The translations under genes and the position numbers were made by a program. Under the pieces are notes generated by a model. That model made no database searches. It saw only the letters and a list, made by a program, of their open reading frames with translations, and had not been told where the DNA came from. From positions 32,001 to 96,000 of the forward strand of contig JAVZCB010000001.1 of assembly GCA_038874595.1 (NCBI GenBank): a DNA stretch of 64,000 bases, read 5' to 3'. Positions 1,039-61,556 of the stretch are shown here, piece by piece; within the stretch, counting starts at the first letter, position 1; the number at the start of each line of letters is the position of its first letter. Source of the DNA: Candidatus Micrarchaeia archaeon (GTDB lineage: Archaea; Micrarchaeota; Micrarchaeia; CAILAH01).

Positions 1039-1228
1039 TGCCAAGGGGGGGATTTTCAGGACGCTAGTTATAAGCCCCTTTGAACCCCCGACTTCCAGAT
1101 TGCCCAGAAACGCCTTATATATCATCGCACGTTTAAAGTGCTCATAACTCACAAGACACGAAAGGGACCGGAGCCCCCAGCCCTTTTCTTATGAGTCTGG
1201 CGCTCTAGCCAGGCTGAGCTACCTTGGC
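1039..1228 (-). tRNA. tRNA-Met(CAU), elongator, with two introns (37/38: 1101-1189, 89 nt; 59/60: 1053-1078, 26 nt)
   Basis: GCCAAGG/CCTTGGC acceptor stem; CCAGA-CTCATA..A-TCTGG anticodon arm; BHBs CUCA/UGGG with UAA and CAA bulges, and UUCA/UGAA with AAG and AAU bulges. Confidence 0.92.
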
Positions 1229-1300: not shown

Positions 1301-3133
1301 ATGGTCAATGGAAAAAAGGTGATTGGGACACCAAAACTCACACTCACAAAAGAACAAATGGATGCGCTTAATGATTTTGCTGACGAGATAGAAAAGATAG
1401 ACCTTAAGCCAATTCCAAAAAAGCGATTATGGAGAGGTCACCATTATATGGGTGGTGCGAACGGGGTCATAAGCGACCTTGAGCTTAAGAGGCTCAACCT
1501 GCCGAGTGAGATTGAGAAGATGCAGCGGTTTATGAACCTGCTTGTAGATATAAAGTTCCTTTCGGTACAGCAGCTTAACGTCAGTGGGACTTATTCACGT
1601 GCGACGTTTGAGAGCGTGAAATCATTGCAGACAGAGCTTAACAGGTTTCTGGCAGAAAAGAAGAAAGGTGTGTATGTCCCTCCATCACAGGAAGAGAAGA
1701 AGGCAGTGGCAGCAGCCGTTGCGAAAATTGCAAAGAGTGAAGAATCCCTAAAAGGCAATATTTTCAATGCTCCTGAGGGGAAGGAGTTTGAGACCAGGAT
1801 TGGAAAGTTTACCTATAAGGTCAGGATGGGTACAAAATCCAAAGATGGAAACAACCGGGTAGGCTTTGCTGAAGTTTTTGATGAAGACGGTAATAGGCTT
1901 AAGAAAATCGCATTCACGGTTGATAAGAAGACTGGAAAAATTTATGCTGAGGGTACAATGCTTTATAGGATTCTAGTGGATGGCTATATAGGTATTGAGA
2001 CGCTAAGAGCAATGGTTGCATATCTTAAGGAAAAGACCACAATCGAGAAAGAGCTGCCTTTGCCAAAGCCAATACATCTAAGCATGAAAGTTGGGTACTC
2101 CTTTATTCCTGAGCTCATAGCAAACTGGCCCTATGAGAAGGAGGCACTTATTATCATAATAGGAAACAAAACGTTGCAAAAGAATAGTAAGCTGATTGAT
2201 ACGATAAACATGGTGCTATGGAATATGCCCTATGATGCTGAGAAATCCATACGTGAAAATCCTCCTTTTGTTGAAATAGATGGAAAAAGGTATTCTGCAA
2301 CCTGGCAGGGCTTAAGACAGGCATATATGGATGGCGTTGATGTTGACAAATTCCTGAAAGAATGGATAAATGTGCTTAAGAAGAATCCACTTACAAAAGA
2401 CCTGGTGGAGAAAGCTGAGAAAGGAAAATTAAAGAAACCTGATACACCAGTGAATTTCTTTATTACAGGCGAAATGAAGGGAACATTTGAAGGGGGGAAT
2501 ATTGGAGTTGATTTAAGTGATATTTCAGGCCTTTTTGGGCAGGCGAAGAGGAATATCGAGCAGAATTTCAGCGATAATGCGTTTAGGAAGGAGATGATCT
2601 CAGAAGTCAATAGATTACAGGCGATGGTTGAAAATGAGGCTATGAATGTTCTGCACAAGGTTGAGAAAGAGAAAGGCGAGTCTTCAATAAAAGATAGATT
2701 TATAGAAGAGCTTAACAATAATCGAGTGCTGAGAAATAGCATATACTTAATGTATAATTATTTTGGAGAATTGCCTGGGTCACTGAGTTATATCAGGCTT
2801 GATGTTACTTATACTGGGATAAACACAAAAGAAGAGATGCGCCTAAGATTGAAAGAATTCATAGATATTCAGCTCGCCAAAAATAAGAATTTGGTTGAGA
2901 AGACCTTCAAAGATGCTGGTATGTACAATGAAAATCCGATACGCATGGCGGAAAAGTTTATGGATAAATACTGTGTATATGAAGGCGGAAGGGTGCTGAT
3001 AAACCTAGATAAAATCGAATCAAAAGATATGAGGTCTTTTGCACTGCTCTTTAGATGGGAGCTGTATAAGACGCAGATTAATGCGGTGGAAAAAAAGCAG
3101 GAGGAGAAAAAAGCAGTTGCCCAAACAAATTGA
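1301..3133 (+). CDS. large Lys/Glu-rich hypothetical protein with a putative split peptidoglycan-binding (PGBD-like) domain
   Basis: Motifs EIEKMQRFMN, LNVSGTYSRATFESVKSLQ and LVDGYIGIETLRAM; alternative start at 1280. Confidence 0.65.
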   Translation: MVNGKKVIGTPKLTLTKEQMDALNDFADEIEKIDLKPIPKKRLWRGHHYMGGANGVISDLELKRLNLPSEIEKMQRFMNLLVDIKFLSVQQLNVSGTYSRATFESVKSLQTELNRFLAEKKKGVYVPPSQEEKKAVAAAVAKIAKSEESLKGNIFNAPEGKEFETRIGKFTYKVRMGTKSKDGNNRVGFAEVFDEDGNRLKKIAFTVDKKTGKIYAEGTMLYRILVDGYIGIETLRAMVAYLKEKTTIEKELPLPKPIHLSMKVGYSFIPELIANWPYEKEALIIIIGNKTLQKNSKLIDTINMVLWNMPYDAEKSIRENPPFVEIDGKRYSATWQGLRQAYMDGVDVDKFLKEWINVLKKNPLTKDLVEKAEKGKLKKPDTPVNFFITGEMKGTFEGGNIGVDLSDISGLFGQAKRNIEQNFSDNAFRKEMISEVNRLQAMVENEAMNVLHKVEKEKGESSIKDRFIEELNNNRVLRNSIYLMYNYFGELPGSLSYIRLDVTYTGINTKEEMRLRLKEFIDIQLAKNKNLVEKTFKDAGMYNENPIRMAEKFMDKYCVYEGGRVLINLDKIESKDMRSFALLFRWELYKTQINAVEKKQEEKKAVAQTN

Positions 3134-3135
3134 GT

Positions 3136-3396
3136 TTACAATTCTTTTTTTAACCATTCATACTGCGGTTTTAATTGTGTTTGGTTATAATAATATATTG
3201 AATCATTTACGAGCCACAGGTCGGTGCTTTGCATTGTTTTTATGGTGCTTGAATAATCCTGGAACTGTAGGTAGTAATGGTTGGTTAATAGCACAATCAA
3301 TAGGAGAAGCATAAGCAGTGATAGTGCCGGCTCCAAAGATATTATAAATCCACGTTTGCTTTCTGATATACCTACGTTGATTCTGTAAGTTCTCAA
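3136..3396 (-). CDS. pilin-like protein (class III signal peptide)
   Basis: KRG|FIISLE followed by a hydrophobic helix; TTG start after GAGGTG (ORF open to 3420). Confidence 0.6.
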   Translation of the reverse strand: MRTYRINVGISESKRGFIISLEPALSLLMLLLLIVLLTNHYYLQFQDYSSTIKTMQSTDLWLVNDSIYYYNQTQLKPQYEWLKKEL

Positions 3397-3397
3397 T

Positions 3398-3763
3398 TCA
3401 GCACACCTCAAGTATTCCAACTTCTTTTATGTCCTTAACATAAACTCCTCGTTTTACGCAGATTAAACTTTGTGGGCCGCCATAGTAATACCCGGATGTT
3501 GTTCTTAATGATACATTTTGTGGCTTTAATGTCTGCAATTTTGCAAGCGTAATCTCGTTGTCCCTCCCTTCAGATAACTGAGATAACACACCATAACTGC
3601 GCGCAATCACAGATGCAATCTGATTGCTTGCTTTTAAGTTATTGTTTGCGCTTGATGTGATTACTGATGCTACATCAGTACATACTACCAGCATAAATAG
3701 CACTAATATAAATGCAATTATCAGGTCAATGTCAAGTATCCCGAGGTTTCTAATCTCCACCAC
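3398..3763 (-). CDS. pilin-like protein (class III signal peptide-like)
   Basis: RNLG|ILDID followed by a hydrophobic helix; probable GTG start (ORF open to 3823). Confidence 0.55.
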   Translation of the reverse strand: MVEIRNLGILDIDLIIAFILVLFMLVVCTDVASVITSSANNNLKASNQIASVIARSYGVLSQLSEGRDNEITLAKLQTLKPQNVSLRTTSGYYYGGPQSLICVKRGVYVKDIKEVGILEVC

Positions 3764-4046
3764 CTTGTCTCTTGTATATCTCAGCTGAAGTGATAACATT
3801 ATTTTCCCTGCAAACGGAAGCATTACCTACTGAGCAGGTTAGGTGCGGGTTGAAATAACCATGCATAATTGTGTATGAATATGCTGTTGCAATCAGTGCC
3901 GTTGATGTTGCGCGTTTTTCCAAGCATGCCATCGTAATTCCTTTTGACTGCTTATCCAAAACTGCTCCAAGCGATGCCTGAAATATTGCAACTATCATTA
4001 TTAATAAGAGAATCCCTATGAGTGCTTCAACACTTATGCTTGTCAT
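3750..4046 (-). CDS. small pilin-like membrane-anchored protein
   Basis: MTSISVEALIGILLL N-terminus with an early Glu and a TM helix; Cys pair; cluster context. Confidence 0.55.
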   Translation of the reverse strand: MTSISVEALIGILLLIMIVAIFQASLGAVLDKQSKGITMACLEKRATSTALIATAYSYTIMHGYFNPHLTCSVGNASVCRENNVITSAEIYKRQGGGD

Positions 4047-5944: not shown

Positions 5945-6880
5945 TTACCATTCTATATCATCTTCCTCTTTGCTTTCTTGGTTGTTGAGAGCGTATTCTA
6001 TAATGTTCCAACCTCTTGCCGTTTTGTTAAGCAAATATTCCTCTCTCATGTTCTCATCGTCAATTTTTATATTTGTAATCACTTTATACCCACCACATTC
6101 CAACGGAGTATCATCACATTTTTTTTGCATGTTGTTTATGATCTCAAGTCTAATTTCTATATCTCTTCCTATGCCATTTTTAATATCCTCAATAAACTTT
6201 TTATATAGCGTCAAATTCTCATTATTCAGAGAAACTTCAAAACTGCTTGGCTTTTTTTGATACATATTATCTGCAATTATTTTTACACGGCCCTTTTCAA
6301 AGTAAACAAAAATGATATCTTTATTATCGCTATCTACATAGACTTGAGAGTATTGTGCGCTCTTATCATGTAAGTTTATTTTATAAGAAGGGTGAGTAGG
6401 CTTTTTGAATAAAATATCTTCGATGTGTCGGATTTCTATACTCACGTTGCTATACTCGCAAACATATTCTCCAAAAATATACAAATTATTACTTGTAATT
6501 TTGTTCACACAAATAGTATCCTCGTTTATAGAATATACTGCTTGGAGCACTTTTTTATCTTCTTCTGGTAACGTATACATGTAATATATTCCTTTTCCAA
6601 AGAGATACGAATACGATCCAGAGTGGGATAAATCTGTATCAATTATGCTGGAACAACCTGTGTTGATAATTTTGATTTGGGATTCATCATCTATGGATGT
6701 AGTTATAATTCCCTCTGCCATTACAGGCCTGCTCAGGAAAAGAGATGCGGCAATCAACCCGCCTGCAGCAATCTTCTTTAGAGCGTTCTTTGGTTTTAGA
6801 TTGTTGAGTTTATTTTTTACAAAGTCTTTTATCTTACCAATTTTTCCTTTTTCGTTTTCAACTTTTTTTATTTCATACAT
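5945..6880 (-). CDS. secreted hypothetical protein, conserved-leader family copy C
   Basis: Basic N-region then GGLIAASLFLSRPVMAE; AT-rich. Confidence 0.75.
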   Translation of the reverse strand: MYEIKKVENEKGKIGKIKDFVKNKLNNLKPKNALKKIAAGGLIAASLFLSRPVMAEGIITTSIDDESQIKIINTGCSSIIDTDLSHSGSYSYLFGKGIYYMYTLPEEDKKVLQAVYSINEDTICVNKITSNNLYIFGEYVCEYSNVSIEIRHIEDILFKKPTHPSYKINLHDKSAQYSQVYVDSDNKDIIFVYFEKGRVKIIADNMYQKKPSSFEVSLNNENLTLYKKFIEDIKNGIGRDIEIRLEIINNMQKKCDDTPLECGGYKVITNIKIDDENMREEYLLNKTARGWNIIEYALNNQESKEEDDIEW

Positions 6881-6894
6881 ATTTTACCACCTTT

Positions 6895-7866
6895 TCATAA
6901 TCTTGTACCAACAGACCCAAAATCTACAGGTACATCAAATTCTACTGATTTTTTTGAGTATTTTATTGAATGATTGCCAGATAGTGGGTTTATTATAAGT
7001 ATATTTTCATACTCTCTGCTTCCCTCTAAAATCAGTTCTATGTTTCCATTGTTGAATAATATTATAGAATACCTAAGATTTTTGATATACTTTTGCCATA
7101 ACAAACTAGCACTGTTATTGACATTATTGATTTTGTATGCGTATAATTTGTAGCCAGTAGCATTACCCTCTTTATCTTCAAATTTTCTAAGTGCAAAAAT
7201 ATAGTTTTTTGAATTTATTTTAGCACAGTAGATATCCGTAATATATATAGAGTCATAGTTTAAGGATAGTGAGTTGCATTTTTCATTGATTAAACTATTA
7301 AGCAGTGTGTTTTCAAATCCAGCGTATATTTCTTTGTTGTTTTTTGTGAGATACAGGTACAAATTAATTAGGTCTGCTTTATTGCATATTTTTAATGTTG
7401 TTTTGTTTTCGTTTTCATTTTCGTTTTCATTGTTCATCATAAAAACTACATTTTCAAAATTGTTTTTGTCTTCCTCTTGATCATTATTGATTTTTTTGCA
7501 TATGTATTCAGTGTTTTGGTATGGGATTTCAATACGGTTATTGTTTGCATCTTTGAAAACAATCACTTTGATAGGAACATTACTTTTTTCATTCGTATCT
7601 TTTTTTTCTTCGAAGCTTACTTTAACTTCGTTGCGAGGTTCTTCAGCCATCACCGGTTGTTTGAGGAATAGCGATGCAGCCATCATGCCATAAAACCCAT
7701 ATGTTGCAGTTTTTTTCAATTTCTCCTTAATGTTTGCAAACCGTCCGGTGTTTTTTTCTTTTACTACTTTTGCGCCAAGCTTTCCTTTGAAGAACTCTTT
7801 TGCTCCCGCAAAGAGATTTTTTTCCTTTTTAATTCCGATCTTTTTGAATTCATTCATATGCTTCAC
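6895..7866 (-). CDS. secreted hypothetical protein, conserved-leader family copy B
   Basis: Long basic N-region then YGFYGMMAASLFLKQPVMAEE; AT-rich. Confidence 0.75.
   Translation of the reverse strand: MKHMNEFKKIGIKKEKNLFAGAKEFFKGKLGAKVVKEKNTGRFANIKEKLKKTATYGFYGMMAASLFLKQPVMAEEPRNEVKVSFEEKKDTNEKSNVPIKVIVFKDANNNRIEIPYQNTEYICKKINNDQEEDKNNFENVVFMMNNENENENENKTTLKICNKADLINLYLYLTKNNKEIYAGFENTLLNSLINEKCNSLSLNYDSIYITDIYCAKINSKNYIFALRKFEDKEGNATGYKLYAYKINNVNNSASLLWQKYIKNLRYSIILFNNGNIELILEGSREYENILIINPLSGNHSIKYSKKSVEFDVPVDFGSVGTRL
7405..7428. repeat. in-frame hexanucleotide repeat (RTTTTC)x4 encoding ENENENEN
   Basis: gttttc gttttc attttc gttttc. Confidence 0.6.
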
Positions 7867-8725
7867 CTATACCAATTTTTTTAGTGTTAATCGAACTTAC
7901 TTCTTTTTTATTTGTACGATTTACTGCGCTTACATTCGTTTTATCACTATTCAAACACTTACTAATATTGAATGTATGAAAATCCTTTCCTACGGAATAC
8001 TGCAGATTTCCACCATCATAAAGTAGTGGGTCTTCACCATATATGGTTTTATTGCATAGATTTTTGATGTCGTTCTCGGTTTTGTAAACATGCAGGATAT
8101 ATTTCAAAATACTATTTCTGTCTTTTTCTAGTGCCAAAAAATACTTATCCGGTCCTTTTACAAAACATGCTTTATCTACGATGTTGTTGTTTTCTACACT
8201 TTGGCATTCTTCTTTAATCAGCATATCAAATTGGTCCTCGTCATACCTTGTATACATGCTATATCTGAATTGAGATGCTTTGTAGCTATTTGGGGAAGGC
8301 GCATATTTCCCAAGGATTTTCAGCAAGGTCCCAGTATTACATATAAAAGAGGTCACTTCCTGGTTTTGGGATTTTTTCAAAAATATGAGCTGCTCGTTAA
8401 AGGGAACTCCTTTATAATCATAGCATTTTACCATCTCTATATCTTCTGGTATTTTGATTTTCAATAGATACTCTTCTTTATTATTCCCCCTGAAAAAAAT
8501 CAACTCGTTATCATTCTTAGGGTTTTCTCTCACCTGCTCTATATTTAAGTTTTTGTAATTTTCTTCTGCCATTACCGGCGGTTTCATAAAAATAGACACA
8601 GCCATCAAGCCGTAGAGCCCATACTTCGCGGCCTTTTTTGTTGCTGATTTTATTTTTTCGAAAAGGCTTTTTCTTGGCCTATCAATATCAATACTCTCCG
8701 GGTTTTTGTGTTTGATGTTTTTCAT
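7850..8725 (-). CDS. secreted hypothetical protein, conserved-leader family copy A
   Basis: Basic N-region then YGLYGLMAVSIFMKPPVMAEE; AT-rich. Confidence 0.75.
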   Translation of the reverse strand: MKNIKHKNPESIDIDRPRKSLFEKIKSATKKAAKYGLYGLMAVSIFMKPPVMAEENYKNLNIEQVRENPKNDNELIFFRGNNKEEYLLKIKIPEDIEMVKCYDYKGVPFNEQLIFLKKSQNQEVTSFICNTGTLLKILGKYAPSPNSYKASQFRYSMYTRYDEDQFDMLIKEECQSVENNNIVDKACFVKGPDKYFLALEKDRNSILKYILHVYKTENDIKNLCNKTIYGEDPLLYDGGNLQYSVGKDFHTFNISKCLNSDKTNVSAVNRTNKKEVSSINTKKIGIGEAYE

Positions 8726-9377: not shown

Positions 9378-9415
9378 GTAGGATGCTTTATAATTTTACT
9401 AACTTATTTTATTTG

Positions 9416-9988
9416 ATGTCTATTGAAGACATAGCTGCAAAGGTTAAAGTATGTACAAAGTGCTCTTTGTGCAAGACGAGGATAAAAGCCGTACCCGGCG
9501 AAGGTAATTCAAACGCTAAAATAATGCTAATCGGTGAGGCGCCTGGTGCAAGTGAGGATGAGCAGGGTAAGCCATTTGTTGGTGCTGCTGGCAAACTGCT
9601 TAACCAAATGCTTGAAAATGCAGGGCTTAAGCGGGAGGATGTATTTATAACAAACATAGTAAAGTGTAGACCGCCCGGGAACCGGGACCCGTTGCCAGAG
9701 GAAAAGACTGCCTGTTCACCTTATCTTGATGCACAAATTGAGGCAATACAACCAGCTGTGATAGTTTGCCTTGGCAGGCACTCTGCTGAATATATGTTCA
9801 GTAAGTTTGGGATCGAGTTCCCAGGTATTACTAAAGCACGCGGCCAGCCTCGCAAGGTGGATTCACTTTTTGGCCATTTTATACTGTTCCCAACCTATCA
9901 CCCCGCTGCAACGATTTATAACCAGCAGCTTAGACCGGTTTTGGAGAGTGATTTTAAGGTGCTTGCAGGGTTAGTGAAAGCATATTGA
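9416..9988 (+). CDS. udg: uracil-DNA glycosylase family 4 (Fe-S)
   Basis: CxxCxLC, GEAPG, FVGAAG, NIVKCRPP, TYHPAA. Confidence 0.95.
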   Translation: MSIEDIAAKVKVCTKCSLCKTRIKAVPGEGNSNAKIMLIGEAPGASEDEQGKPFVGAAGKLLNQMLENAGLKREDVFITNIVKCRPPGNRDPLPEEKTACSPYLDAQIEAIQPAVIVCLGRHSAEYMFSKFGIEFPGITKARGQPRKVDSLFGHFILFPTYHPAATIYNQQLRPVLESDFKVLAGLVKAY

Positions 9989-10070
9989 GCAAAATATTTT
10001 AACTTCTGATACTCTGATGTAAAATTAATTGAAGCATATATAAGCTTTTTCTATTTTAACTATACCACAC

Positions 10071-10421
10071 GGGCCAGTAGCTCAGCCTGGTCAGAGCGGC
10101 GGTCTTATATGGCTCCGTCTGATAAAGTATGTAAGACTCAGGCTAAGAGAGCCGTAGGTCGGGAGTTCAAAGCACTGATGGAAGGGGGCACATCCCCCTC
10201 GCACATTCGCACTTGCGAATGGCGCATCGTTTGGCTTTGCCAAACGATTGTCCCTCGTGTGGTCTACACCTAACCCCCTGAGATATGGAGGAGGTGTAGC
10301 ACTGATGGAAGGGGCACATCCCCCTTCTCAACCCACCTATCCCCTATGAGGGTTTGGGTGTGCGAAAGAAGTGGATTTGGGTTCCTCTCCACACTTTAGT
10401 TTGAAAATCTCCCCTGGCCCA
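10071..10421 (+). tRNA. tRNA-Ile(UAU) with two introns (37/38: 10110-10149, 40 nt; 59/60: 10172-10407, 236 nt)
   Basis: GGGCCAG/CTGGCCC acceptor stem; CT-TAT-A anticodon loop; BHBs CUUA/UAAG and UUCA/UGAA with 3-nt bulges; T stem GGGAG/CTCCC. Confidence 0.88.
10171..10325 (+). repeat. 28-29 nt direct repeat with internal hairpin inside the tRNA-Ile T-loop intron (10171-10199 and 10298-10325)
   Basis: AGCACTGATGGAAGGGG(G)CACATCCCCCT twice, differing by one G. Confidence 0.95.
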
Positions 10422-10430
10422 CTTAGAAAA

Positions 10431-10751
10431 ATGACAAGAAGAAGGCTAAGCGCGAAGAAGAAAGGCGTCGCATCAGACATCGCTCGCGAGAGGGTTATTA
10501 CCCTCCTGCAACTTGCCAAGAAGATGCTGGGGCAAGGGAGGGATGATGTCGCGAAACGCTACTGCTCTCTTGCGCGAAAAATCCAGCTCAGGTACAGGGT
10601 CAGGCTGCCCCGCAAGGGTCGGCTTGAATACTGTAAGAAATGCTTTATTCCCTGGGTTCCTGGAAAGAGCGTACGCGTCAGGCTCGATAGCAATCGGCGT
10701 TGCGTTGAGTATGCATGTGTATGCGGCCATAAGAAAAGGATAGTTTATTAG
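10431..10751 (+). CDS. rnp4: RNase P protein subunit Rpp21
   Basis: IARERV..L, RY..LARKI, CKKC...CxCG Zn ribbon; lies before S19e. Confidence 0.92.
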   Translation: MTRRRLSAKKKGVASDIARERVITLLQLAKKMLGQGRDDVAKRYCSLARKIQLRYRVRLPRKGRLEYCKKCFIPWVPGKSVRVRLDSNRRCVEYACVCGHKKRIVY

Positions 10752-10758
10752 AGGTGTA

Positions 10759-11181
10759 ATGATGGTAGGAGTATATGAAGTTGATGCAAACCGGCTTATA
10801 GCCGTTTTGGCAAAGAAACTTGAATCTGATGGAGTCGTTGCGCCGCCGGCCTACATAAAGTACGTGAAGACAGGGTCTCACGTTGAGTTTGGTCCTGAAG
10901 ATAAGAAGTTCTGGTATAAGAGGTGTGCCTCCATATTAAGGCAGGCATATGTTTATGGTACTATAAGTGTGGGAGGGTTGCGCAGGCATTATGGTGGTAG
11001 GAAAAGGCACGTTGTAAGGCGTTCTCATCATCGTGATGCTGGCGGGGCGATAATCCGTCGGGCGATGCAACAGCTTGAGAAAGCAGGGCTCTTGAAGAAA
11101 GAGGCCAAGGGCAGGTCGCTTACCCCGGCAGGTAGGAAGATGGTTGATGCCGCATGCAAGGAGGCAGGAAAAAGTGAGTGA
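10759..11181 (+). CDS. rps19e: 30S ribosomal protein S19e
   Basis: YVKTG, WYKRCASILR, YGGRK, IIRRAMQQLE. Confidence 0.97.
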   Translation: MMVGVYEVDANRLIAVLAKKLESDGVVAPPAYIKYVKTGSHVEFGPEDKKFWYKRCASILRQAYVYGTISVGGLRRHYGGRKRHVVRRSHHRDAGGAIIRRAMQQLEKAGLLKKEAKGRSLTPAGRKMVDAACKEAGKSE

Positions 11182-11485
11182 AATGGATGACGATGAGCTG
11201 GAAGAGCTCCGGAAGAGAAAATTGCAGGAACAATATCAGGCCGCGTACCTTGAGCAGAAGTTGAAGGAGGTTATGCAGACCTTCTTGGAAGGCGCGGCGT
11301 ACGAGCGCGCAATGAATATCAGGAGTGTCAACCCAACGCTTTACAGGCAGCTTGCAATGGTGATTGCCCAACTTGCTGATAGCGGTCGACTGAGCAGGAA
11401 GCTCACCGAGAAAGAGCTCTTAGTTATTCTGTCGCGGTTAAGTGGCAGTAGGCGCGATCCTACGATTGAGATAAGGAGGAAGTGA
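11174..11485 (+). CDS. PDCD5-like dsDNA-binding protein
   Basis: [14 protein letters not shown]...A.ER..NI; conserved position after S19e. Confidence 0.9.
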
Positions 11486-61392: not shown

Positions 61393-61556
61393 GGGCCCGT
61401 AGCTCAGCCTGGATAGAGCGGCAGCCTTCTAGTCCTTTTTCTTTCTTGCAGGCAAGAAAGAAAACCGGCACTAAAAGAAAGAAATGGAGGCGTGTCCAGT
61501 AATGCGCTTCAGGATAAGTAAGCTGAGGGTCGTGGGTTCAAATCCCATCGGGCCCG
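61393..61556 (+). tRNA. tRNA-Arg(UCU) with an 89-nt intron (61432-61520)
   Basis: GGGCCCG acceptor stem; CAGC-CTTCTA..A-GCTG; BHB-like CUUC/UAAG plus UCCU/AGGA; intact T-arm. Confidence 0.92.

Follow-up and report, generated by a model that had tools for sequence, protein, structure and literature searches.

The window, by which we mean the whole 64-kb stretch of DNA that was analysed, carries a tRNA-Ile(UAU) gene with two introns, which lies downstream of a UDG gene and is followed by the genes for the RNase P subunit Rpp21 and for rpS19e (Table 1). The host genome originates from hot springs, and the sister genome is a Micrarchaeota bin. ARAGORN called no tRNA gene in the 64-kb window as it stands and returned pure noise at low stringency; it recognised the tRNA-Ile(UAU) once both introns had been cut out in silico, indicating that tRNA genes of such a build escape standard tools. 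Two other genes were missed by the same scan, a tRNA-Met(CAU) gene with two introns (1039-1228, reverse strand) and an intron-bearing tRNA-Arg(UCU) gene (61393-61556, forward strand). Elsewhere in the window, three tandem AT-rich paralogue-like ORFs with similar long signal-peptide-like N termini were observed at 5945-8725 on the reverse strand.

Table 1. Features of the tRNA-Ile(UAU) locus, with positions in the window.
Feature	Position	Strand	Remarks
UDG gene	9383-9988		upstream of the tRNA gene; context only
tRNA-Ile(UAU) gene	10071-10421	+	including both introns
5' exon, positions 1-37	10071-10109	+	anticodon at 10106-10108
Canonical 37/38 intron, 40 nt	10110-10149	+	from sequence and from intron-free orthologues (L022-L024)
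Middle exon, positions 38-59	10150-10171	+	contributes UUCA to the splice helix and the 5' strand to the T-stem
59/60 intron, 236 nt	10172-10407	+	relaxed hBH motif; empty in 17/30 orthologous loci
Element A, with M nested	10173-10279	+	head 10173-10179, purine arm 10180-10188, loop, pyrimidine arm
Element A, continued		+	closing strand and linker to 10268; mirror tail 10269-10279
Module M, 51-nt double perfect hairpin	10200-10250	+	in the pyrimidine arm of A; 51-nt skip
Filler	10280-10299	+	ends in the reverse complement of the A tail
Second A head and hairpin	10300-10327	+	A-to-B switch in 8-nt microhomology, 10320-10327
B tail (10328-10345), filler, older hairpin, UGAA	10328-10407	+	87% like the tRNA-Ile(GAU) T-loop intron
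3' exon, positions 60-73	10408-10421	+	
Rpp21 (RNase P subunit) gene	10431-10751	+	downstream; context only
rpS19e gene	10759-11181		context only

The helix of the 37/38 intron is formed by CUUA and UAAG (10104-10107 and 10144-10147). This intron contains a block with the motif CTGA that is kept in many Micrarchaeia and resembles a GAU anticodon loop; the block is probably just a conserved stem. An alternative GAU product generated through the intron was considered and rejected, given that a separate tRNA-Ile(GAU) is present and that the pairing reaches 0.2 or less.

By sequence criteria, the 59/60 intron is of the EndA type: a 4-bp helix with a 3-nt bulge is present, the tRNA is restored on removal, and a suitable EndA and RtcB are available. 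In folds of the pre-tRNA, the splice helix UUCA/UGAA, whose UGAA partner lies at 10402-10405, paired together with its 3' bulge at p=0.87-0.96. The BHB described in an earlier note on this DNA was thus recovered as to this helix and the 3' bulge, but not as a strict motif: it is a relaxed hBH, in which A10170 pairs with U10401 (p=0.86) on the 5' side and the lower helix reaches only ~0.2. The junction expected on removal is the same as that in intron-free orthologues (L005 and L022), and ARAGORN accepts the product. The tRNA-Ile(UAU) is the only AUA-reading tRNA found in the genome. ATA is the commonest isoleucine codon (7455 in long ORFs), and TiaS was not found in any of five family genomes. 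The EndA of the sister species is of the epsilon2 type and matches 4fz2 at E 4e-104, while the host's own EndA copy spans an assembly gap; RtcB is encoded (E 2e-172). From the sole AUA reader, the lack of a detected TiaS, the hBH helix, the epsilon2 EndA, RtcB and the codon usage taken together, we infer that the 59/60 intron is probably spliced. The sole match in one RNA run was a foreign tRNA, which speaks neither for nor against splicing. A second short EndA-like ORF (161 aa; L091:1474-1959) was noted in three family genomes and was undetected in the host genome. The epsilon2 EndA of ARMAN-2, to which the sister-species enzyme corresponds, cuts an hBH intron at 59/60 in vitro (PMC3239211). 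Archaeal tRNA introns in a review measure 11-129 nt (PMC4090602), and an essential tRNA would here tolerate an intron of nearly twice that maximum length.

The internal repeat that had been reported for the intron (10171-10199 and 10298-10325) is present, with 28/29 positions identical and one G indel, and the longest exact repeat in the intron is 16 nt, compared with at most 12 nt in 2000 shuffles. The three hairpins described with it were all found in the sequence, and the intron folds with a z of -5.1. A long-range 7-bp pair that had been suggested exists in the sequence, but it is absent from the 37 °C fold and its halves come from unrelated modules. An Rfam search on the locus returned only two chance matches. 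A 9.2-kb contig from another study (run X2) spans the locus across 9400-11200 with two differences, both outside the intron; the intron is unchanged, and misassembly, which had been raised as a possible refutation, is unlikely.

The 59/60 intron is very probably a mosaic of dispersed mobile elements. In a BLAST search against the genome, 10171-10291 was identical (121/121 nt) to the second unit of the tRNA-Arg(GCG) intron, and the junction after this shared block matches the first Arg(GCG) unit, indicating that the block is circularly permuted between the two loci. For 10320-10421, the counterpart is the tRNA-Ile(GAU) T-loop intron with its exon (87% over 105 nt), and the 8-nt microhomology at the switch is common to the element families A and B. 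In the predicted RNA, the filler at 10280-10299 sequesters the A tail (p=0.99). The B tail mirrors a B head that is no longer present in the intron, which supports the reconstruction of a B-type ancestor with a replaced head. In the sister species, the Ile(UAU) 59/60 intron starts with a B head, and the Ile(GAU) intron is unrelated. Among the 30 orthologous loci, the 17 without a 59/60 intron show the predicted junction and the rest carry unrelated introns; other family members have unrelated introns of 31-153 nt, or none.

These comparisons altered several proposals of the earlier note. What had been taken for a duplication of the intron's own 5' end is a unit of a dispersed family, further copies of which lie in additional tRNA genes, in the opposite orientation and at sites that are not tRNAs. 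The 109-nt ancestor would combine an A head with a B tail, a chimera that is absent from all relatives, whereas the sister species starts with a B head, and an ancestor of the B type appears likelier. A series of orthologues with zero, one or two repeat-plus-cargo units, for which the note proposed an alignment, does not exist. In run X2, Arg(GCG) appears to be without A+M, which is kept at the present locus; the depth sums to 20.84 without the Arg copy, against 20.8 observed. This is a weak hint that Arg(GCG) is the variable locus in the exchange. Arg(GCG) was also considered as the donor, on the grounds that the last letters of its unit make a perfect splice partner with that loop, but the same letters are simply the reverse complement of the A tail, and the apparent absence of A+M at Arg in run X2, with its retention here, further weighs against a donor role.

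Element A is ~55 nt long and consists of an invariant head, a variable hairpin, an invariant closing strand with a linker, and a C-rich tail. The hairpin covaries, with 97% paired and 7 pairs changed on both sides (0/500 shuffles), although related copies inflate these values. A covariance model of A found 2-18 copies in 6/7 family genomes and one weak match among 143 others. The layout of A recurs, with other sequences, in families B, C, D, E and F. M is a double perfect hairpin of ~50 nt (51 nt here) that is found on its own as well as nested in A and in other families. A search of viral contigs for exact A, B and D motifs gave 0 matches, and no viral carrier of the elements was found; the IS loci of relatives have no sequence in common with the elements. 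Loose motif scans were too noisy to use.

Copies of A were located in tRNA introns in both orientations, after the ends of tRNA and SRP RNA, immediately behind stop codons, ahead of start codons and at TATA boxes, and A begins a BHB-flanked insertion in an archaeal 23S rRNA gene (L097:1-330; BHB by inspection). In the host genome, all detected copies are tRNA-linked. At these unrelated, non-homologous sites the 5' end of A is sharp and invariant, and the flanks are unconserved. Direct repeats of 9-30 bp flank at least 9 A copies and start 0-1 nt from the head; most intron copies are without a duplication. Two A insertions of the sister species have empty sites in the host genome, at one of which the host has one copy of an 11-bp AT-rich TATA-like segment where the sister species has two, one on either side of A. 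The tail-side fillers range from 10 to 1474 bp, some are common to several loci, and the longest holds a phosphoesterase/RNase H-like gene. Tandem units of 72 nt are bounded by repeated heads, and the units of the tRNA-His intron end in a splice-competent UGAA.

Several other arrangements were observed. Between tRNA-Ser and an antisense A copy there is a gene for a 469-aa phosphoesterase/RNase H-like protein, framed by an 11-bp repeat of the end of the tRNA (L072:14060-15600); this is a possible case of cargo capture. A C-family-like palindrome lies in frame within a TatD-like gene (L071:540-590), recalling coding palindromes. At three places in one genome (G000 C3:54800-54990, C4:79070-79190 and C6:28250-28700), 3' exons of tRNAs are repeated in tandem; every copy begins precisely at position 59 or 60 and adjoins a hairpin head. 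In one relative, the 5' part of the Ile(UAU) gene runs into a Val-like 3' half (L006, ~1300-1590), through either recombination or misassembly, and in another (L005:430-570) the 5' end of the tRNA is repeated three times upstream.

The position of the heads in tRNA genes proved uniform. All 26 of the 26 sense heads found by pattern lie 0-3 nt after the 5' splice site, as do a further 14/14 read at or next to loci that a position-blind model search had found; this count is without internal tandem copies, and the pattern register, off by one in some anticodon cases, was fixed by eye. The splice-neutral landing pad growing by polar addition that had been envisaged for this intron therefore agrees with every sense copy examined, and the rule is general. 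Which family is present at a given splice site varies from genome to genome, tRNA-Pro(CGG) carrying B, D or A, indicating that arrival is recurrent. In anticodon introns, five antisense heads adjoin the 3' splice site, and 3 or 4 pairs of the splice helix there come from the reversed head. Intron tails are usually paired with the next filler (median -13 vs -4.9 kcal/mol, p=2e-5, a comparison confounded by G+C and including a few misclassified copies).

We also compared the tail of each A copy with its own purine arm. In parallel mirror register the 40 copies scored 466, compared with 391±14 when permuted (0/2000) and 375 in a direct-repeat control; the copies are related, and the permutation consequently overstates the number of independent events. 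The same test gave weak support for D (17/2000) and was not significant for B alone. The tail base opposite G was C in 351/372 cases, and opposite A it was T in 77, A in 44, C in 11 and G in 2 (T or A in 121/134). Since both T and A are tolerated opposite A, the pattern fits a purine-motif triplex on the G-rich strand, and the A copies would thus carry the signature of such a DNA triplex. A purine-motif triplex cannot form in RNA and can arrest DNA polymerase (PMC4666352). A strict scan detected 7 such motifs in the genome, all at element loci, of which 1/7 passes with a loop of 6 nt or less. That the elements move by a single-stranded DNA or triplex chemistry is a tentative suggestion, possible but doubtful.

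In the host genome (93.5% complete), no RVT_1, Y1, IS110, TnpB, tyrosine integrase, resolvase (serine recombinase), DDE_1, Cas1, PolX or IMS (Y-family polymerase) was found; the only primase is one ordinary enzyme, and a custom RT profile run against all six frames gave a best E of 0.87. PF01797 (Y1) was detected in 0/9 family genomes, and RAYT was likewise not found in these 9 genomes. An RT occurs in 1/9 of them, the sister species, where it lies near two A copies and is a DGR RT; frameshifted DGR RTs account for the short RTs met elsewhere in the class. The enzyme for the elements is probably supplied in trans or by host repair. The DGR locus of the sister species (L071:1255-3557) comprises a template repeat, a variable repeat with A-to-N changes and the RT, and was not found in the host genome. 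In several Micrarchaeia, the DGR RT genes (L117, L119, L120, L123, L126 and L128, ~2900-4000) are frameshifted at one site, a run of ~9-12 G (or C) that looks like a slipped-strand on/off switch, and the L071 copy is intact. No tyrosine recombinase, not even a XerA-like one, was detected in five family genomes (G000, G001, G003, G006 and G007).

The elements have fixed ends, are dispersed, occur in both orientations and show duplications, empty sites, polarity, mirror covariation and exchange among three tRNA genes. Our main reading, to which we assign a probability of about 0.6, is that the 59/60 intron is a spliced, selectively near-neutral refuge built from short non-autonomous mobile elements. 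In the mechanism we propose, the element would travel as single-stranded DNA, its G-rich strand forming a hairpin plus a purine-motif triplex, and its head would be joined to a free 3' end in the target, with a second break 9-30 bp away giving the duplication. The gap would then be closed by variable filler through template switching, drawing on fold-back on the tail, on local sequence or, in one case, on 1.5 kb that includes a gene. Within tRNA genes, the joint would coincide with the 37/38 or 59/60 splice site, and the product would be removed by the epsilon2 EndA and RtcB. At the present locus, an older B-type intron may have exchanged sequence with tRNA-Ile(GAU), its B head may then have been replaced by an A+M unit via the 8-nt microhomology, and the A+M unit may also have been exchanged with tRNA-Arg(GCG), by a circle or a double template switch, followed by conversion and slippage. 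A bolder form of the proposal, which we regard as speculative and rather improbable, is that Micrarchaeota harbour an undescribed class of ~55-nt triplex-folding ssDNA elements, possibly with gene cargo, whose heads are joined by an enzyme to gene ends and to the splice sites of tRNAs and rRNAs, and which thereby create or rebuild EndA-spliced introns, constituting a mechanism of intron gain.

Two other routes compete with this reading, each at a rather low probability. In one, RtcB would mis-ligate excised introns to EndA-cut 5' exons, or an RT acting in trans would copy circles, and the cDNA would convert the gene. Such an RNA route gives heads at the splice site (0-3 nt) and multimers, accounts for the permuted order of the block held in common with Arg(GCG), and is in keeping with the UGAA ends of the tRNA-His units and with the DGR reverse transcriptase of the sister species. 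However, it leaves the antisense copies, the intergenic copies with duplications and the copies at TATA boxes and stop codons unaccounted for, no RT was found in the host genome, and the A-tolerant mirror fits a triplex that cannot form in RNA (PMC4666352). In the other, no dedicated mobility exists: replication would stall at hairpins or triplexes, the modules would spread by template switching of the host, by slippage and by ectopic conversion that uses exon sequence common to tRNA genes, and selection would keep only the spliceable or intergenic outcomes. The failure to find an enzyme, the crossover within 8-nt microhomology, the 72-nt tandem units bounded by repeated heads, the tRNA linkage of all copies detected in the host genome and the instability of BoxC loci without a known enzyme (PMC4666352) all agree with this route. 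It does not readily give the sharp invariant 5' end of A in unrelated non-homologous sites, the duplications that start exactly at the head or the 23S rRNA intron that begins with A, and selection alone does not put 40/40 heads within 3 nt of a splice site.

The earlier note had also suggested that the intron releases a stable structured RNA with its own function. That the excised 236-nt intron serves as a guide, a regulator or a stable circle is very improbable. The folding is strong (z -5.1), and in other archaea a C/D guide resides in the tRNA-Trp intron (PMC4090602), but 17/30 orthologues are empty and the rest unrelated, Rfam gives no match, inspection shows no canonical C/D spacing, the same modules occur antisense and in intergenic positions, and the triplex signature fits DNA better than RNA. 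An intron-encoded box C/D guide was rejected, as neither canonical boxes nor conservation among orthologues was found, and hammerhead and HDV-like ribozyme readings were ruled out by inspection and Rfam. An assembly artefact that joined Arg(GCG) and Ile(GAU) repeat reads into the Ile(UAU) locus is hardly credible: contigs do break at a 110-nt shared repeat in the probable source run, but run X2, from another study, gives one contig across the locus with no change in the intron, and its depth sums exactly without a second A+M copy.

The arrival of archaeal tRNA introns has been stated as an open question (PMC4090602), and no general arrival route was found in Asgard archaea (bioRxiv 10.64898/2026.10.13.758758). 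Mobile hairpins that land at tRNA splice sites offer a concrete handle on this question, as an arriving unit whose ends can be defined, whose orientation follows a rule and whose structure covaries, with empty sites and duplications besides, makes rival mechanisms of intron gain testable.

We found no paper describing such elements. They behave like the transposed introns of Thermoproteales and like BoxC, PATE/SMR and mitochondrial GC-cluster repeats, but lack features that define MITEs, PATEs/REPs, BoxC, SINEs and C/D guides. A DDE-mobilised MITE was rejected because the ends are unrelated, without terminal inverted repeats, and the duplications are 9-30 bp rather than of fixed length. A PATE, an IS200-605 derivative or a REP-RAYT system does not agree with the presence of duplications, the unconserved flanks, the 0/9 genomes with PF01797 or the lack of a match to IS loci. 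REP, BIME and RPE repeats are also tiny hairpin modules that move without coding capacity, REPs depending on RAYT. The variable duplication with one precise end is SINE-like, but a partner RT is lacking, with none found in the host genome and a DGR RT in 1/9 of the family. A CRISPR-like array was excluded, as the fillers are common to loci and no Cas1 was found in the host genome. Transposed tRNA introns were reportedly described in Thermoproteales by Fujishima in 2010.

With the BoxC/PIT/TM repeats of E. coli (PMC4666352), A has in common a G/C-rich hairpin with a mirrored third strand (G-G-C, A/T-A-T), and those elements are also dispersed, intergenic, at times in inverted pairs and tied to local instability. 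A differs in having the class I order on the G-rich strand, not class II, and a second loop of ~15-19 nt rather than 3 nt; splice-site targeting and duplications, found for A, did not appear in the part of the BoxC account considered. The Haloquadratum PATEs and SMRs (PMC3119063) are likewise short, transposase-free palindromic elements, one type of which nests in the palindrome of the other, as M does in A. However, neither type duplicates its target, terminal inverted repeats are present in SMRs and the PATEs are IS605 derivatives, whereas duplications occur here and no Y1 was found. Mitochondrial GC clusters and double-hairpin elements (PMC4478555) are likewise very small GC-rich hairpin modules which, although non-coding, fuse, shuffle and move; their duplications are fixed at 2-3 bp, compared with 9-30 bp here. 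The hBH introns of ARMAN-2 (PMC3239211) share the 59/60 position, the relaxed hBH, a tRNA-Ile(UAU) without TiaS and an epsilon2-type enzyme; the example intron is 13 nt long, whereas the present one has 236 nt and is composed of dispersed elements. The transposed introns of Thermoproteales (summarised in PMC4090602 and PMC4033280) share near-identical intron sequences in different tRNA genes and positions, whereas what moves here is smaller than an intron, an element whose ends are fixed, which occurs in both orientations and in intergenic positions, and which shows duplications, nesting and cargo.
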